The notes beneath the pieces are model-generated. The model worked only from the letters and a program-made list of their open reading frames with translations. It did no database searches and was not told where the DNA came from. Source: a virus. Taken from it: a DNA stretch of 64,000 nucleotides. Within the stretch, counting starts at the first letter, position 1, and the number at the start of each line of letters is the position of its first letter. Of this stretch, positions 3,741-8,924 are shown piece by piece. Location of the stretch: positions 1-64,000 of the IMG/VR virus record IMGVR_UViG_3300028608_000011; one strand, 5' to 3'. A program made the position numbers and the translations under genes.

Positions 3741-3813
3741 TGACCCAACCCCGCCCCCTATTTTGTTGCACGGGAGAGACGTGCCTCACCGCCTAGGTCA
3801 GCGCTGGAAATTT

Positions 3814-3842
3814 TTTACTTTTTCAGATTCCGGCCCTATGCT
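3814..3842 (+). promoter_or_regulatory. sigma70-type promoter (rightward)
   Basis: TTTACT-17-TATGCT, divergent from the leftward promoter. Confidence 0.5.
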
Positions 3843-3935
3843 TCAGCCTCGCAGGCGCAAGACCCGTAAGCCCCTCCTGCCGTGTCACCCACACCCACAC
3901 CTACACCCCCATCCTCCACGACAGGAACCACCACC

Positions 3936-4397
3936 ATGACCTTCTACCCTACGATCACCATCCCGCCGGCCGTTGACACCATGGCCCGCGAACTAGCCGA
4001 GCAGGACGCAGCCCAGCGCTCCAACGTCGACACCGGCACCCTGCAGGACTGCGTGGATCGCCACGACCAGCAGACCCAGCCCTTCACCCTCAATCTCAGC
4101 GAGAACGGCGTGACCTGCGGCATCGGCCTGCGCATCGACCCAGACCAGGCCAAGTACGCCACGACCCGCCTGAAGATGACCCTGCACAGCGTGACCCCGC
4201 TCGAGACCAGCGCCGACGATCCGCTCACCCGGTGCACCTTCGGCGCGGTGTACTCGCCCAACCCCACCGAGGAAGACGGCGTCTATGGCAAGTACACCCC
4301 GTATGGACAGCTGACCTACAACGTGCGCAGCGACATCGCCGCCAACCTGATCCAGGGCCGCGCTTACTACATTGACATCTGCCTGGCTGACCTCTAA
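3936..4397 (+). CDS. hypothetical protein (153 aa) with beta-rich C-terminal domain
   Basis: SD AGGA then ATG at 3936; C-terminal motifs KYTPYG and GRAYYIDI. Confidence 0.75.
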   Translation: MTFYPTITIPPAVDTMARELAEQDAAQRSNVDTGTLQDCVDRHDQQTQPFTLNLSENGVTCGIGLRIDPDQAKYATTRLKMTLHSVTPLETSADDPLTRCTFGAVYSPNPTEEDGVYGKYTPYGQLTYNVRSDIAANLIQGRAYYIDICLADL

Positions 4398-4400
4398 TCT
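4372..4400 (+). promoter_or_regulatory. sigma70 promoter embedded in the 3' end of the gene
   Basis: TTGACA-17-TAATCT. Confidence 0.7.
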
Positions 4401-4406
4401 GCGCCG

Positions 4407-4486
4407 TGTGAGCTTTGGCAGGCACACAAACAGAATGCTCGACCCCGTGACCTCAAGGATTAGTCCTCCTTGAGGTCTTTTTCTTT
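4407..4486 (+). ncRNA. candidate ~80-nt small RNA
   Basis: bounded by the promoter at 4372-4400 and a terminator; GTGTG/CACAC hairpin and A-rich linker; no credible ORF. Confidence 0.4.
4449..4486 (+). terminator. Rho-independent terminator
   Basis: GACCTCAAGGA/TCCTTGAGGTC 11-bp stem followed by a T-tract. Confidence 0.8.
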
Positions 4487-4517
4487 CTGGACTATCCTCC
4501 GCTCGCCAATCAGCGAG
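4470..4517 (+). promoter_or_regulatory. sigma70-type promoter with the palindromic motif over +1
   Basis: TTGAGG-17-TATCCT followed by CTCGCCAATCAGCGAG (4502-4517). Confidence 0.45.
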
Positions 4518-4527
4518 AAATCCCTAC

Positions 4528-4689
4528 ATGGATGTCCAAGAAGCAATACTCATCGTGGCCTACGGCATCGTCGCCTGGCTGCCCACCCTCGACTACACCG
4601 ACTTTGCCGCCTTCGCCGTGTGTTTCTTCACCGGGTACTGGCTGCGAGGACGGGAAAAACGGAAGAAGACCAATGAGCCAGAGAACTGA
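4528..4689 (+). CDS. small membrane protein (53 aa; not in the ORF track)
   Basis: MDVQEAILIVAYGIVAWLPTLDYTDFAAFAVCFFTGYWLRGREKRKKTNEPEN; two hydrophobic segments, basic tail, GC3-rich codons. Confidence 0.6.
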   Translation: MDVQEAILIVAYGIVAWLPTLDYTDFAAFAVCFFTGYWLRGREKRKKTNEPEN

Positions 4690-5236
4690 TCACATGCCCG
4701 CGCAGCCGGTGGTAGGCCGAATAGTGCTGGGCACTGATACGCAGGGGCGCACCTACGCAGCCGGGCTTGGCGTAAGCCTGGAAGACTTGAAACACAGTGG
4801 TATGCAGATCGCCGCTGCCATCGCCGACACCCCGCTTGGGGGAGATCTGGCACAGTCAGTGCGCCTGTCAGACGACCAGATTGGGCCAACCCCGCCGGAG
4901 GATGTGTACCGTTTCCTCCAGGTCACCAAGCGCAAGGCCGACCAGCTGGAAGAGACTTACACCGAGCTGCTGCTCGAGTCCGGCGGCTACGATGAGGTCA
5001 ACCAGCGCCACCTCAGCCTGGCGCGCGATCACTTCGAGACGGCGCTGATGTTCTTGAAGCGGGCGCTGCACGGGATCAAGGTGGAAGAGCCGGCGATGAT
5101 CGGTGCCAATGGCCAGCTGACCGAGTACGGGCGCAAGCACGCCACCATCACCTCAGCCATGATCTGTGACGCGAAGATCGCTGACCCCGTTTCGCAGATC
5201 TCGGATCGCCAAATTGATGTTGACGATTGCAAGTAA
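4673..5236 (+). CDS. protein containing an Acb2/Tad1-like helical hairpin domain (candidate cyclic-nucleotide sponge)
   Basis: TKRKADQLEE ... RHLSLARDHFETALMFLKRAL resembles the Acb2/Tad1 hairpin signature; start re-assigned to ATG 4673. Confidence 0.55.
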   Translation: MSQRTDHMPAQPVVGRIVLGTDTQGRTYAAGLGVSLEDLKHSGMQIAAAIADTPLGGDLAQSVRLSDDQIGPTPPEDVYRFLQVTKRKADQLEETYTELLLESGGYDEVNQRHLSLARDHFETALMFLKRALHGIKVEEPAMIGANGQLTEYGRKHATITSAMICDAKIADPVSQISDRQIDVDDCK

Positions 5237-5253
5237 CCTCGCTAATCTGCGGG
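5220..5253 (+). promoter_or_regulatory. sigma70 promoter for the tRNA/sRNA transcript, overlapped by the palindromic motif
   Basis: TTGACG-17-TAATCT; CTCGCTAATCTGCGGG at 5238-5253. Confidence 0.7.
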
Positions 5254-5293
5254 CTACTCCAAGGCGGTGCGGCGAGTGAGCAGGACGGTTTCG

Positions 5294-5311
5294 TGAGACA
5301 AGGATGTCTCA
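5294..5311 (+). promoter_or_regulatory. CsrA/RsmA-binding hairpin
   Basis: TGAGACA-AGGA-TGTCTCA contains ACAAGGAUGU with GGA in the loop. Confidence 0.6.
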
Positions 5312-5320
5312 ACAGGTTTC

Positions 5321-5399
5321 AGAGGGTTCGCCAAGTCTGGCCAAAGGCATCGGGTTTTGATCCCGACATTCCAAGGTTCGAATCCTTGACCCTCTTCCA
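5321..5399 (+). tRNA. tRNA-Gln(UUG)
   Basis: acceptor AGAGGGT/ACCCTCT, D arm GCC..GGC, anticodon arm TCGGG-TTTTGAT-CCCGA, T arm CAAGG-TTCGAAT-CCTTG, encoded CCA. Confidence 0.92.
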
Positions 5400-5402
5400 G
5401 CA

Positions 5403-5482
5403 GTTCCGGGTGAAAGCGTCAGCCATTGCGCAGGGCTTAGGCCCAACAAGCCGGAGATGAAATGGCACCGGCGCCCGGACTC
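5403..5482 (+). ncRNA. candidate C4/IsrK-like structured small RNA
   Basis: closing stem TCCGGGTG/CGCCCGGA with internal hairpins GGGC-TTAG-GCCC and GCCGG-AGATGAAATGGCA-CCGGC. Confidence 0.4.
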
Positions 5483-5489
5483 GATGTAC

Positions 5490-5522
5490 AGAAAGCCCCG
5501 TCATCGCACGGGGCTTTCTTTT
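5490..5522 (+). terminator. Rho-independent terminator
   Basis: AGAAAGCCCCG/CGGGGCTTTCT stem followed by Ts. Confidence 0.85.
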
Positions 5523-5670
5523 GCCCGAAAACCCCGCTAATCTCCGAGTTAAGTCGGCCCGTGACCCAGTGTACCTCGTCCACGATAGACCCACGGATAA
5601 CGGCCAACGTGTGCTGTAACGGGGCAAGAAGCCCTCGCCGACGCCTACTTCAACGAACGGATTCCAGACC

Positions 5671-5961
5671 ATGCCAAGTGCCAACGCCAACATCCAAGAC
5701 CTGATCACGCTGGTGTCTCGCAACTGCGATATCACCAAAGCGGAGGCCAAGGTCTACATCGAAGCGACCCTGCAAGGGATTGTCCAGCTCGCCACCGACC
5801 GTGACAAACTGACCCTGCGCGAGTTCGGCCGATTCGAGATGCGCCACCACAAGGCCCGGATCAACAGCAAACCGATCCAGGGCGCGCCGGTGGTGATCCC
5901 GAGCCGCGAGCTGCTGCACTTCACCCCGTCGAAGCTGCTGGCCGTGGAGGTTGATTACTGA
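5671..5961 (+). CDS. HU/IHF family DNA-binding protein
   Basis: 96 aa; LTLREFGRFE...ARIN...IPSRELLHFTPSKLL fits the HU/IHF signature. Confidence 0.85.
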   Translation: MPSANANIQDLITLVSRNCDITKAEAKVYIEATLQGIVQLATDRDKLTLREFGRFEMRHHKARINSKPIQGAPVVIPSRELLHFTPSKLLAVEVDY

Positions 5962-6578
5962 TGGCTGCTCGAATCACACCCCCACAGCTGACTGTCGGCC
6001 CGGGCGATCCAGGCTGGGATGCACCGGAAGAAGAGATGGCGCCGGACAGCGCGCACCCGGACAACTATCGGCCGATGGCCAGGCCTATTGAGGTGACCAA
6101 CCTGGCTTCGCTGAAGTGGGCTGACCGTGAGGCGTTCGACGCCATTGAGTTGATCTGCACCCAGCTGAAATACGACATGCTGCCGGAGGAGATCCAGCTG
6201 CACATCATCGAGTCCATGTCGGCGAGCACAAAGCGCGCACTGGTCTCGCAGATGGCTGGGCTGGATGCCTCGGTGCTGGTGACGTTCAAGCAGCAGCTGG
6301 CGCTGATCGACGCGGTGTGCGCGCGCGTGGTGAGCCCAGACGGTACGCCGAAGAACAACCACGGTCTGGACATCGGCGTGAAGGACGCGCTGAATATGTC
6401 CATGAAGGTGATCAGCATGCTGGTCAAGGATCTGCCGAAGGTCATCACCCTGGCGCGCGTGCAGCGGCTGGAGATGAGCCTGATGAAGGTTGTCGAGTCG
6501 CTGCCACGCGACAAACAGGACGAGGTGCTTCTGCTCCTCGAGGAAGAAGAACGCAAGGCCGTGAGGGAAGCGAAATGA
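5961..6578 (+). CDS. putative terminase small subunit
   Basis: helical 205-aa protein upstream of TerL; function by position only. Confidence 0.45.
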   Translation: MAARITPPQLTVGPGDPGWDAPEEEMAPDSAHPDNYRPMARPIEVTNLASLKWADREAFDAIELICTQLKYDMLPEEIQLHIIESMSASTKRALVSQMAGLDASVLVTFKQQLALIDAVCARVVSPDGTPKNNHGLDIGVKDALNMSMKVISMLVKDLPKVITLARVQRLEMSLMKVVESLPRDKQDEVLLLLEEEERKAVREAK

Positions 6579-7129
6579 AAAGCCTGCGGTGGAACCCTTT
6601 TGCGATGTGGTCTGATCACTGCGCTCTGGTTGAGCGTCTGGCAAAGCTGGAAGACCAGGTTGAGCGGCTGGAGAAGGCCGCGCTCGACCACGCCACCATT
6701 ACCAGCCACGAACTGTTCAAACTGAAGAACCCATGGTACGGCTCTACTGTCGAGAAACCACTGACTCCAGAGCAGGAAGATATTGTCAAAATCTTCATGG
6801 AAAACAGAAAGTTACCCGAAGAAATTCGACGTGGTTTTGCCTCTGGTGGGTACTTCAATCGGAAGGCGGAAGGTCGGTTCGGCGAGGTGCCGTCGGAGCA
6901 GGTGCGCGCGACTGATGCGCAGTACGACGGCACGCCTTACGCGGTGTGCAACACTCCCGATGGGGAGCTGCCAGACGTCAGCTTTGAGGATTTGCGAAAG
7001 GCCATAAGTGAGATCTCGGCGCCGCGGCCGTACCCGGGGCATTCCTTCCGCCACCCTCAGCTGGAGCTGCCTCGACGCGCTAACCTATCCGGCATCCGCG
7101 ATCCCCAGCCACCGCGCCGACCACAGTAA
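6575..7129 (+). CDS. hypothetical protein (184 aa)
   Basis: ATGA overlap with the upstream gene; start MKSLRWNP. Confidence 0.65.
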   Translation: MKSLRWNPFAMWSDHCALVERLAKLEDQVERLEKAALDHATITSHELFKLKNPWYGSTVEKPLTPEQEDIVKIFMENRKLPEEIRRGFASGGYFNRKAEGRFGEVPSEQVRATDAQYDGTPYAVCNTPDGELPDVSFEDLRKAISEISAPRPYPGHSFRHPQLELPRRANLSGIRDPQPPRRPQ

Positions 7130-7139
7130 GGAGCAACAC

Positions 7140-8924
7140 TTGAGCAACCATGGATCGGTAGCAGAACGGTTCCGCATGGCCCTCAGCCGCGAAGAGGGCA
7201 TGAAGGAACTGGATCAGACCATCTTGAAGTACGGGTATGTCGAGGGAGAGCCTTTCTCCTTCGACGACCACGAATTCCAGATCGAGATCGTGCGCGATAC
7301 TTCGCAGCGCATCGACGTGCGCAAGTGCTCGCAGGTCGGGCTGACCGAGATGATGGTGCAGAAGACCCTGGCGATCCTCGCGGTGATGAAGAACATCCGG
7401 GTGATGTTCAGCCAGCCGACCAAGGAGATGGCCGGCAAGTTCTCCAAAGACCGGATCGATGGCGCGGTGGAGCAGAGCGAGTTCTACTCGGGGCTGGTGA
7501 AGGCCGGCTCCGACGCCGCGGGCATGAAAAAGATCGGCCGCAATTTCCTCTACATCATCGGCACCTACGGCGCCAACTCGGCGATTTCCGTACCGGCCGA
7601 GATGATCATCTCCGACGAAACCGACTTCTCCAACGAGGTAGTCCTCGGCAAGCTGAACTCCCGTATCCGTCACGCCAAGACCGTCGATGAGCAGGGCAAC
7701 CGAGGCTACCGCTACCGGTTCTCGACACCGACAGTGGACGGCTTCGGTATCGACGTGGGCTTCCAGGCCGGCGATCAGCGCTACTACATGTGCAAGTGCG
7801 AGCACTGCGAGACTTGGGTCAACCCAACCTTCCTAGAGGACATGATCCTGCCCGGCTGGGACAAGTCGCTGCTGGAGTTCGGCCGGGACAATCTCGACGA
7901 TGAGCGAATTGACATCCAGTCGGCATGGATGCGCTGCCCATCCTGTCACAAGGATCTGTGGCCATCGCTGGTGAACCCGGCGCGGCGCCAGTGGGTGGCG
8001 AAGAAGCCTGACAACTGGAACCACAGCTACCAGGTCAACCCGTGGGACGTGCCCAAGTACAACACGCCGCCGAACATCTTCGCGCAGTTCGAGGCCTACC
8101 CGCTCAAGTCCGACTTCTTCAACTTCGTACTGGGGCTGCCGTTCTCCGACGCCGAGAACAGCTTCATCGTCACCAACGAGCACCGGGCCAAGACCTGTGA
8201 CGTTGACCTGTGGATCTTCAACCAGTGCATCATCCCGTGCGGCACCGTCGGCGGGATGGACGTCGGCAAGATCCTGCACTTTGTGGTGAAGGTGAAAGTG
8301 CCTGGCGGTTGGCATGTGGTGTGGATGGAGAAGATCGCCAACACCAAGAGCGACCCGGCCTTCGAAAAGGTGCTTGAGCGCTACGACTTTTTCAACATGC
8401 GCAAGCTGTGCATCGACGCCGGCCCCGACATCACGCTGGTGAACATGCTGGTGATGGCGCGCAGCGGCATTCAGGCCGTGGTCTACGTCAGCAACCTGCA
8501 AGGCTTCCTGCCCATCGTCGAGAAGACCGAGGGCGAGGTGATCAACGCTGACCGGACGAAGACCCTGACCCTGCTGCTGAACCAGCACAACTCCGGGGAA
8601 TGCCACTACCCGCACCGGGATGACTTGAAGATCGAGCTGTTCAAGCACCTGGAGACCACCAAGAAAGTGCGCGAGCGCGGGATTGACGGCAACATCACCG
8701 AGAAATTCATCAAGACCGACAAGCAGGATCACTGGGTGCACGCGCTGAACTACGCGAACATCGCGGCGATCGCCTGCGAGCAGTTCGAGGATCACAGCGT
8801 GGTCGGCGTGCTGCCAGGCACTGCTGCGGTGCGGATGGGCAGCGCGGTGAAGGAAAAGACTGAGCATGTCGAGCCAAGCCCTATTCTTGTCGGGATGTTC
8901 GGGTTTGCTGGTAGACGCAGATAA
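7140..8924 (+). CDS. terL: terminase large subunit (lambda GpA-like)
   Basis: TTG start after SD AAGGAG; Walker A RKCSQVGLTE, Walker B IISDE, FSTPT motif, two CxxC pairs, GMDVG nuclease motif, DHWVHA. Confidence 0.9.
   Translation: MSNHGSVAERFRMALSREEGMKELDQTILKYGYVEGEPFSFDDHEFQIEIVRDTSQRIDVRKCSQVGLTEMMVQKTLAILAVMKNIRVMFSQPTKEMAGKFSKDRIDGAVEQSEFYSGLVKAGSDAAGMKKIGRNFLYIIGTYGANSAISVPAEMIISDETDFSNEVVLGKLNSRIRHAKTVDEQGNRGYRYRFSTPTVDGFGIDVGFQAGDQRYYMCKCEHCETWVNPTFLEDMILPGWDKSLLEFGRDNLDDERIDIQSAWMRCPSCHKDLWPSLVNPARRQWVAKKPDNWNHSYQVNPWDVPKYNTPPNIFAQFEAYPLKSDFFNFVLGLPFSDAENSFIVTNEHRAKTCDVDLWIFNQCIIPCGTVGGMDVGKILHFVVKVKVPGGWHVVWMEKIANTKSDPAFEKVLERYDFFNMRKLCIDAGPDITLVNMLVMARSGIQAVVYVSNLQGFLPIVEKTEGEVINADRTKTLTLLLNQHNSGECHYPHRDDLKIELFKHLETTKKVRERGIDGNITEKFIKTDKQDHWVHALNYANIAAIACEQFEDHSVVGVLPGTAAVRMGSAVKEKTEHVEPSPILVGMFGFAGRRR

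Follow-up and report, generated by a model that had tools for sequence, protein, structure and literature searches.

Acb2 and Tad1 are phage sponges that soak up bacterial alarm molecules, and each assembles into a homo-hexamer, a trimer of dimers, that makes the ligand pockets. Such proteins are well known: they number in the thousands, and structures have been solved. As examples of Acb2 (anti-CBASS 2) we take PaMx33 gp24, JBD67 gp34 and T4 Vs.4, and as examples of Tad1 (Thoeris anti-defence 1) CbTad1 (7UAV/7UAW) and CmTad1. In PaMx33 Acb2, cyclic dinucleotides are bound by Y11, which stacks on the base, and by K26 of helix 1, which forms a salt bridge to the cyclic dinucleotide, and cA3 is bound by R67 and T74 in a threefold pocket (PMC10312549). 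CmTad1 uses R88 and T95 for cA3 binding in the same way as Acb2 uses R67 and T74, and its hexamer is held together by Q98, E99, M102, W103 and K106 (bioRxiv 10.1101/2023.11.15.567273). The window analysed here, a 64,000-nucleotide stretch of viral DNA, contains a gene whose product, P0001, carries a predicted helical hairpin in the middle of a larger protein. How closely does this hairpin resemble that of Acb2 and Tad1, and what might it bind?

The hairpin gene, its family and its locus

The virus record of the window is 84,007 bp long and 96% complete (CheckV), and identical DNA is also present in soil metagenomes, with no RNA data set among the samples listed for it. Its DNA relatives are the Pseudomonas phages Lana (Lanavirus) and PMBT3, which share 72-75% identity with the window over parts of positions 3800-7200. 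The features of the hairpin gene and its surroundings are as follows.

3882-4397, + strand: conserved 171-residue gene, function not known (phrog_6978), upstream of the hairpin gene
4528-4689, + strand: hydrophobic 53-residue ORF (ORF list; small ORFs at the same position in Lana and PMBT3)
4673-5236, + strand: hairpin gene, encoding the 187-residue P0001, stop included (translation; nine-member family)
4673-4852, + strand: N-terminal extension, residues 1-60 (alignments; pLDDT 38-59)
4862-4897, + strand: pre-helix segment R64-P75, RL[PS]D[HD][LQ]IG.TPP (invariant columns R64 and I70)
4895-4981, + strand: predicted helix alpha-1, residues 75-103 (AlphaFold2 pLDDT about 79-93; invariant D77, R80, F81 and L99)
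4928-5065, + strand: match to PF24729 (Acb2_Tad1_hairpin), residues 86-131, model positions 17-55 of 58 (HMM)
4982-5002, + strand: loop at the tip of the hairpin, residues 104-110, Y106 invariant (alignments and AlphaFold2)
5003-5071, + strand: predicted helix alpha-2, residues 111-133 (AlphaFold2 pLDDT 92-94; hhalign to PaMx33 Acb2)
5072-5233, + strand: C-terminal extension, residues 134-187 (common to P0005 and P0136; pLDDT 36-78)
5220-5248, + strand: promoter-like TTGACG-17 nt-TAATCT, overlapping the end of the hairpin gene (final codons, for VDDCK, and stop)
5321-5399, + strand: tRNA-Gln, anticodon TTG (ARAGORN), the next gene downstream

The gene at 4673-5236 is real and conserved, given that eight relatives share a common conserved core with it and that two of these also share its C-terminal extension with conservative substitutions. 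The open frame covers 4532-5236 on the + strand, and the ATG at 4673 yields the 187 residues of P0001. Public gene callers start the protein at M8 to give 180 residues, and an identical protein is present in a public collection with a precomputed PF24729.3 assignment. The ATG at 4673 is the better start because all nine family proteins start with MS(Q/E/N) and because the Lana homologue has an identical 17-nt overlap with the small ORF upstream.

The family is small. phmmer, run exhaustively over 1.84 billion representatives, returned only eight true relatives; a profile word-index search accounted for one added member, P0136, with nine proteins in total counting P0001, and it recovered no sequences that bridge the family to other proteins. 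A search of IMG/VR loci with P0001 or P0008 gave no relatives, and tblastn against 50,697 phage records identified Lana gp130 as the only homologue. The family proteins range from 98 to 263 residues. Their contigs are 84-89 kb long, except for that of P0007 (44 kb) and two others (22.5 and 5.4 kb) that are too short to judge. Where contigs are long enough to judge, the family is restricted to the lineage of Lana-like Pseudomonas phages.

The core of P0001 spans approximately residues 64-135 and consists of a predicted hairpin that follows the conserved RLxDxxIG-TPP segment. The family consensus reads R-L-P-D-H-L-I-G-x-T-P-P-x-D-x-R-R-F-L-A-V-T-x-R-K over the pre-helix segment and helix 1 and D-Q-R-H-L-x-I-A-R-x-H-x-E-x-G-L-M-F-L-x-K-A-L over helix 2, and seven residues are invariant (R64, I70, D77, R80, F81, L99 and Y106 in P0001 numbering). 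With the family alignment as input, AlphaFold2 predicts antiparallel helices at residues 75-103 and 111-133 (block pLDDT 90-94), and it predicts a matching hairpin in Lana gp130 (helices 76-105 and 112-134, pLDDT >90), where nothing confident is modelled N-terminal to it (pLDDT <60). These models bear out the original prediction, which had read two helices from the letters. The hairpin peptide that it had placed at 4895-5075 corresponds to V78-L132 of P0001 at 4904-5068, so that its left limit lies three codons too far out and its right limit about two. Its R-x-L-S-L-A-x4-E-x-A-x-M-x3-R-A pattern is found as R112 to A131, and its estimate of about 75 additional N-terminal and 50 additional C-terminal residues agrees with the 77 residues that precede the peptide and the 55 that follow it in the larger protein.

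The regions outside the core are lineage-specific add-ons. N-terminal extensions vary among family members, and the type found in P0001 (GRIVLGT..G.T.A.G...SLEDVK...IAAAI.DTPLGGDL) is common only to P0001, P0005 and P0136. No confidently known domain matches this extension, which AlphaFold2 models as a low-confidence beta-hairpin (residues 18-21 and 27-30) and two helices with pLDDT <60. A C-terminal extension of 50-80 residues that ends in (V/I)DDCK is found only in the same three proteins; in P0001, it contains a motif of the I-T-S-A-x-I-x-D-x-x-I type and its VDDCK end is akin to the DDGK tail of the short members, six of which finish with V-E-I-x-D-D-G-K. A core that is conserved while its extensions vary is what an accessory gene caught in an arms race might show.

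A link of the N-terminal extension to Ig-like repeats is no more than a lead. Residues 18-73 of P0001 (4724-4891) show repeated 25-32% identity to the second half of the Ig-like repeat of P0006, a 4,142-residue Big_3_3/Big_6 protein. The phmmer E-value of 8e-20 is the sum of 12 near-identical copies of about 30 bits each, and a single copy would miss significance against the library.

A motif of the form I-(T/S)-x-A-x-I-x-D-G-x-I-(T/S), which we take to resemble repeats in phage fibre proteins, occurs at residues 153-182 of P0001 (5129-5218). In the short members P0003, P0007, P0008, P0009 and P0011, the motif lies N-terminal to the hairpin, and in the three long members it is part of the C-terminal extension. 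The regions that bear it give weak and non-significant matches to Pfam Phage_Tail_Tip (E 0.03 and 0.48).

Several further elements lie around the gene. In the product of the upstream gene at 3882-4397, the N-terminus is rich in Pro and Thr and varies between the window phage, Lana and PMBT3, and the C-terminal half is near-invariant in these three phages. A TTGACA-17 nt-TAATCT element at 4372-4400 is located inside the final codons of this gene, and about 50 nt past it is a strong terminator-like hairpin, GACCTCAAGG...CTCCTTGAGGTC followed by a T-run, at 4449-4485 (stem 4449-4477). The stem is kept base for base in Lana (L001, about 2108-2145). Together, the element and the hairpin could delimit a small non-coding RNA about 80-110 nt long. 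At 4502-4517, approximately 10 nt before the start of the 53-residue ORF, is a second, smaller hairpin, CTCGC-CAATCA-GCGAG. It is conserved, with a Lana counterpart, CCTCGCCAAACAGCGAGG, in the same place (L001, about 2190-2207), and may serve as a signal for translation or processing.

The 53-residue ORF gives no match in Pfam and PHROG searches and probably encodes a membrane peptide. Its counterpart in Lana is 38% identical and that in PMBT3 is 15% identical. The 17-nt overlap of this ORF with the start of the hairpin gene suggests translational coupling.

The promoter-like element at 5220-5248 precedes the tRNA-Gln gene by about 70 nt. Lana has a matching element, TTGACA-17 nt-TAACTT, about 30 nt past the stop of its homologue (L001, 2803-2831), and the context cctcgcTAAyyTgcgg around the -10 box is conserved in both. 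The element is conserved, but it lies inside the coding sequence only in the window phage. A generic sigma-70 consensus scan did not report the 5220-5248 element. Further downstream follow, in order, an HU/IHF-like protein (PF00216), a 205-residue protein, the large terminase and the portal. Gene order around the hairpin gene in Lana is the same as in the window. In PMBT3, the flanking genes are kept and the slot after the small overlapping ORF contains an unrelated 309-residue protein (L002, 2021-2950) that has no Pfam match. With this swap between conserved flanks, the locus behaves as a variable accessory slot.

Borderline match of the core to the Acb2/Tad1 hairpin

PF24729 is the top Pfam match of P0001, with an E-value of 9.7e-6 and 26.1 bits against a curated gathering cut-off of 27 bits, and it covers only positions 17-55 of the 58-column model. 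In a six-frame search of the 84-kb record, the region at 4928-5065 scores 27.4 bits, above the cut-off, and a parallel search of 14 control genomes gives weak matches in 11 and none above the cut-off. PF24729 is also the top match, in the same region, of P0008, P0011 and P0007 (E 1e-4, 0.053 and 0.07; 22.9, 14.2 and 13.8 bits), and it gives no match in five of the nine family members. At the sequence level, the match of P0001 to the Acb2/Tad1 family is borderline but repeatable. The HMM search with Acb2/Tad1 profiles that the original prediction had put forward as its check thus returns a borderline positive, with scores on either side of the cut-off; weaker signals in three relatives, a profile-profile alignment over helix 2 and protein language-model neighbours back it up.

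The profile-profile alignment was obtained with hhalign between the family and an Acb2 alignment of our own, made from 12 diverse proteins in phage records (among them those of PaMx33, JBD67, VP882 and jumbo phages). It has an E-value of 2.4e-4 and a probability of 44% over 23 columns, confined to helix 2, and pairs Q111-H133 of P0001 with G66-A88 of PaMx33 Acb2, which equates R112 with R67, D119 with T74, M126 with M81 and R130 with R85. Against a narrow Acb2 clade, the probability is only 3%. An HMM built from our Acb2 alignment gives P0008 11.9 bits, a score that none of 2000 shuffles reaches, and P0001 4.1 bits, matched by 12 of 2000 shuffles; the remaining family members are indistinguishable from shuffles. 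In a protein language-model comparison, the neighbours of the core are PF24729 clusters, with scores of 0.87-0.88 and 198-202 of 256 features in common, and the whole of P0001 scores 0.81, with all ten best annotated neighbours belonging to the PF24729 family; scores <0.9 count as a lead only by the tool's own rating. Other searches gave no such link: BLASTP against JBD67 Acb2 produced no alignment, phmmer against PDB sequences found neither Acb2 nor Tad1, the family profile against PDB sequences likewise found no Acb2 or Tad1 and had the Cbl UBA domain as its best match (E 0.013), and PHROGs gave no match for P0001.

The models predict for P0001 two long antiparallel helices, as in the protomer core of Acb2 and Tad1. 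Fold searches cannot discriminate further, because a bare two-helix hairpin resembles thousands of chains. Foldseek with the P0001 and Lana models returned no PDB entry at E <= 0.001 and, from BFVD, only the Lana homologue. A wide VIA-align search returned 1,207 chains at Z >= 5, all of them generic helical hairpins; the best 50 include neither Acb2 nor Tad1, and no Tad1 chain is among the matches listed by either tool.

Could the core be an unrelated helical hairpin, specific to Lana-like phages, with amphipathic helices that fit the 58-column PF24729 model by chance? Amphipathic helical hairpins readily give spurious profile matches, and a chance match would account for a protein score below the cut-off, for the majority of relatives without a PF24729 match, for the missing PDB sequence match to Acb2 or Tad1 with generic results in the fold searches, for an Acb2 HMM that separates only P0008 and P0001 from shuffles, and for language-model scores that stay <0.9. 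However, four members that are about 45% identical in the core independently have PF24729 as their top or near-top match in the same columns, and the 84-kb phage passes the cut-off that 0 of 14 control genomes pass. Furthermore, hhalign puts the conserved Arg, Met and Arg/Lys residues in the Acb2 register, and the ten best annotated language-model neighbours all point to one family. We consider a chance match unlikely, although it deserves serious weight, and regard homology of the core to the Acb2/Tad1 hairpin as fairly probable.

Pocket residues and possible function

The ligand-binding residues of Acb2 are only partly recognisable in the family. In canonical Acb2, G10-Y11-R12 occupies positions 1-3 of the Pfam model and is invariant in the Acb2 alignment. 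This segment is unmatched in P0001, whose alignment starts at model position 17, and the family has I70-G71-x-T-P-P there, without an aromatic residue; the original prediction was right that a GYR motif is not obvious. The register of helix 1 is ambiguous, since P0001 K86 falls at PF24729 position 17 and the ungapped alignment of P0007 would put this model position seven residues later. hhalign leaves helix 1, and with it the K26 region, unaligned, and a conserved R87-K88 pair is located nearby. In helix 2, Arg is present at the R112 column, equivalent to Acb2 R67, in seven of the nine family members. The equivalent of T74 is D119, and this column reads D, N, N, N, N, H, T, T and I across the family, with Thr in two of nine. 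In the Acb2 protein of the Serratia phage CHI14, listed with the homologues that retain just one of the two cA3 residues, the Arg is likewise kept and the Thr is not, and its authors made an E76T mutant (PMC10312549). Judged by CHI14, cA3 binding of the canonical kind is disfavoured when the Thr position holds an acidic residue. Among the four Acb2 ligand residues checked, R67 is kept, Y11 and T74 are not, and the equivalent of K26 is not placeable. Because the stacking Tyr of GYR is absent and the Thr of the cA3 pocket is Asp, P0001 would probably bind a ligand in another way than PaMx33 Acb2 does.

The spacing of helix 2 residues can also be compared with that of Tad1. P0001 has R112, D119, E122, M126, F127 and R130, that is, an Arg followed by residues at +7, +10, +14, +15 and +18, which mirrors R88, T95, Q98, M102, W103 and K106 of CmTad1 in spacing only. 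The residues invariant in the family are grouped in three places: ahead of helix 1, in the tip of the hairpin and where helix 2 begins. The pockets of Acb2 and Tad1 are formed by these regions (PMC10312549; bioRxiv 10.1101/2023.11.15.567273). On the basis of conservation in the alignment, R64, I70, D77, R80, F81 and Y106 are candidates for a remodelled pocket.

We propose, as a reading with about an even chance of being correct, that P0001 is a divergent relative of Acb2 and Tad1 that soaks up a signal as an oligomer and differs from them in ligand specificity. By analogy with Acb2 and Tad1, which form hexamers where this is known, the hairpins of P0001 would assemble into a homo-oligomer. Pockets between protomers would trap the nucleotide alarm signal of a Pseudomonas defence of the CBASS, Thoeris or Pycsar type, such that the defence effector would never be switched on. 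The conserved pre-helix segment and the loop Tyr may replace the role of the missing GYR Tyr. Oligomerisation, ligand binding and anti-defence activity of P0001 are inferred from this analogy. The original prediction of a divergent or fused sponge, possibly with a different ligand, is partly supported. A divergent hairpin relative is what the borderline matches point to; the word fused is only partly apt because the N-terminal extension varies and contains no known domain and because the C-terminal extension is present in just three members.

P0001 may instead be a true homologue of Acb2 and Tad1 that has been put to another use, binding a host or phage protein or serving as an assembly or regulatory factor, with the extensions providing specificity. 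The loss of Acb2 Y11 and the Asp in place of T74 would be expected of such a protein, more than half of P0001 lies outside the hairpin in member-specific extensions that carry the I-T-x-A-x-I-x-D-G-x-I motif and the weak Phage_Tail_Tip matches (E 0.03 and 0.48), and the gene stands just before the packaging and structural module. The strongest conservation, however, falls on the pre-helix segment, the hairpin tip and the first part of helix 2, where Acb2 and Tad1 have their ligand sites; moreover, the minimal family member has the size of Acb2 and the tail-tip matches are not significant. We hold this other use to be unlikely, and slightly less likely than a chance match.

A more far-reaching version of the sponge reading is less probable again. 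The family could form a separate branch of Acb2/Tad1 sponges, with a pocket built around R64, I70, D77, R80, F81 and Y106, a new signal or messenger as the ligand, and swappable extensions that tune binding or add a second binding function. The ligand would then be an immune signal for which no sponge of this fold is known so far, or an uncharacterised messenger of Pseudomonas defence. A UBA-like three-helix domain in the central region is highly improbable, as the best PDB sequence matches of the family profile, the Cbl and Cbl-b UBA domains (positions 91-131), have marginal E-values of 0.013-0.5, Pfam gives no UBA match, and a three-helix bundle of about 40 residues is rejected by the continuous 23-residue helix at 111-133, predicted with pLDDT >90 in two models.

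Sponges reveal which small-molecule alarm signals count in conflicts between phages and bacteria. If the family is a sponge, it may report a different ligand or binding mode, because the stacking Tyr is gone, Thr is found in only two of nine members and the family has invariant residues of its own. Study of divergent members of the Acb2, Tad1 and Tad2 families has already brought new specificities to light, for 3'cADPR, cUMP and N7-cADPR (bioRxiv 10.1101/2025.08.24.671296). The sponge survey took only clusters of at least 20 members, a threshold by which a nine-member family would be missed (bioRxiv 10.1101/2025.08.24.671296). If the family is not a sponge, it calls for caution with borderline PF24729 annotations of helical hairpins. 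The presence of gp130 in the cultured phage Lana makes the sponge idea directly testable.

Comparison with Acb2, Tad1 and Lana gp130

P0001 resembles Acb2 in being phage-encoded and in having, at its centre, two long helices predicted to run antiparallel as a hairpin. Helix 2 follows the shared motif R-x-x-x-[IL]-A-[KR]-x-x-[IL]-[QE]-x-G-[LVI]-M-x-x-x-[KR]-A, in which Acb2 R67 is kept as R112, and the minimal family member, at 98 residues, has the size of an Acb2 protein. However, canonical Acb2 proteins score 51-72 bits over the entire Pfam model, whereas P0001 scores 26 bits over positions 17-55. The GYR segment with its stacking Tyr is replaced by RLxDxxIG-TPP in the family, T74 is Asp in P0001, and the Tyr in the hairpin loop of the family is invariant. 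Acb2 is a single domain of about 70-110 residues, whereas P0001 is roughly double the length at 187 residues, with about 60 additional residues at the N-terminus and about 54 at the C-terminus. Terminal additions have a precedent in some Acb2 proteins (Acb2_43), in which extra terminal strands reshape the pocket (bioRxiv 10.1101/2025.08.24.671296).

The likeness to Tad1 lies primarily in domain order and in helix 2. In the short members of 132-183 residues, as in Tad1, the two-helix hairpin stands at the C-terminal end and the part before it is variable, and helix 2 of P0001 carries the Arg, +7, +10, +14, +15, +18 spacing of CmTad1. In contrast to Tad1, an N-terminal antiparallel beta-sheet is not seen in the models, in which the N-terminal pLDDT is <60, and P0001 has a C-terminal extension that is absent in Tad1.

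The closest homologue from a cultured phage is Lana gp130 (YP_009820460.1, hypothetical protein), which is 43% identical to P0001 over residues 61-137 (E 3e-21). It has no Pfam match of its own, and a literature search turned up three papers that mention Lanavirus, none of them known to deal with gp130. The two genes occupy the same setting, after a small overlapping ORF and before tRNA and HU-like genes, and their products share the same predicted hairpin. Lana gp130 differs in its length of 143 residues, in an unrelated N-terminal extension and in the lack of a C-terminal one, with the DDGK tail placed directly after helix 2. Relative to the described Acb2 and Tad1 proteins, what appears new here, judged from sequence, is a small branch, confined to one phage lineage and far diverged, in which terminal regions have been added and the pocket residues are not the canonical ones.
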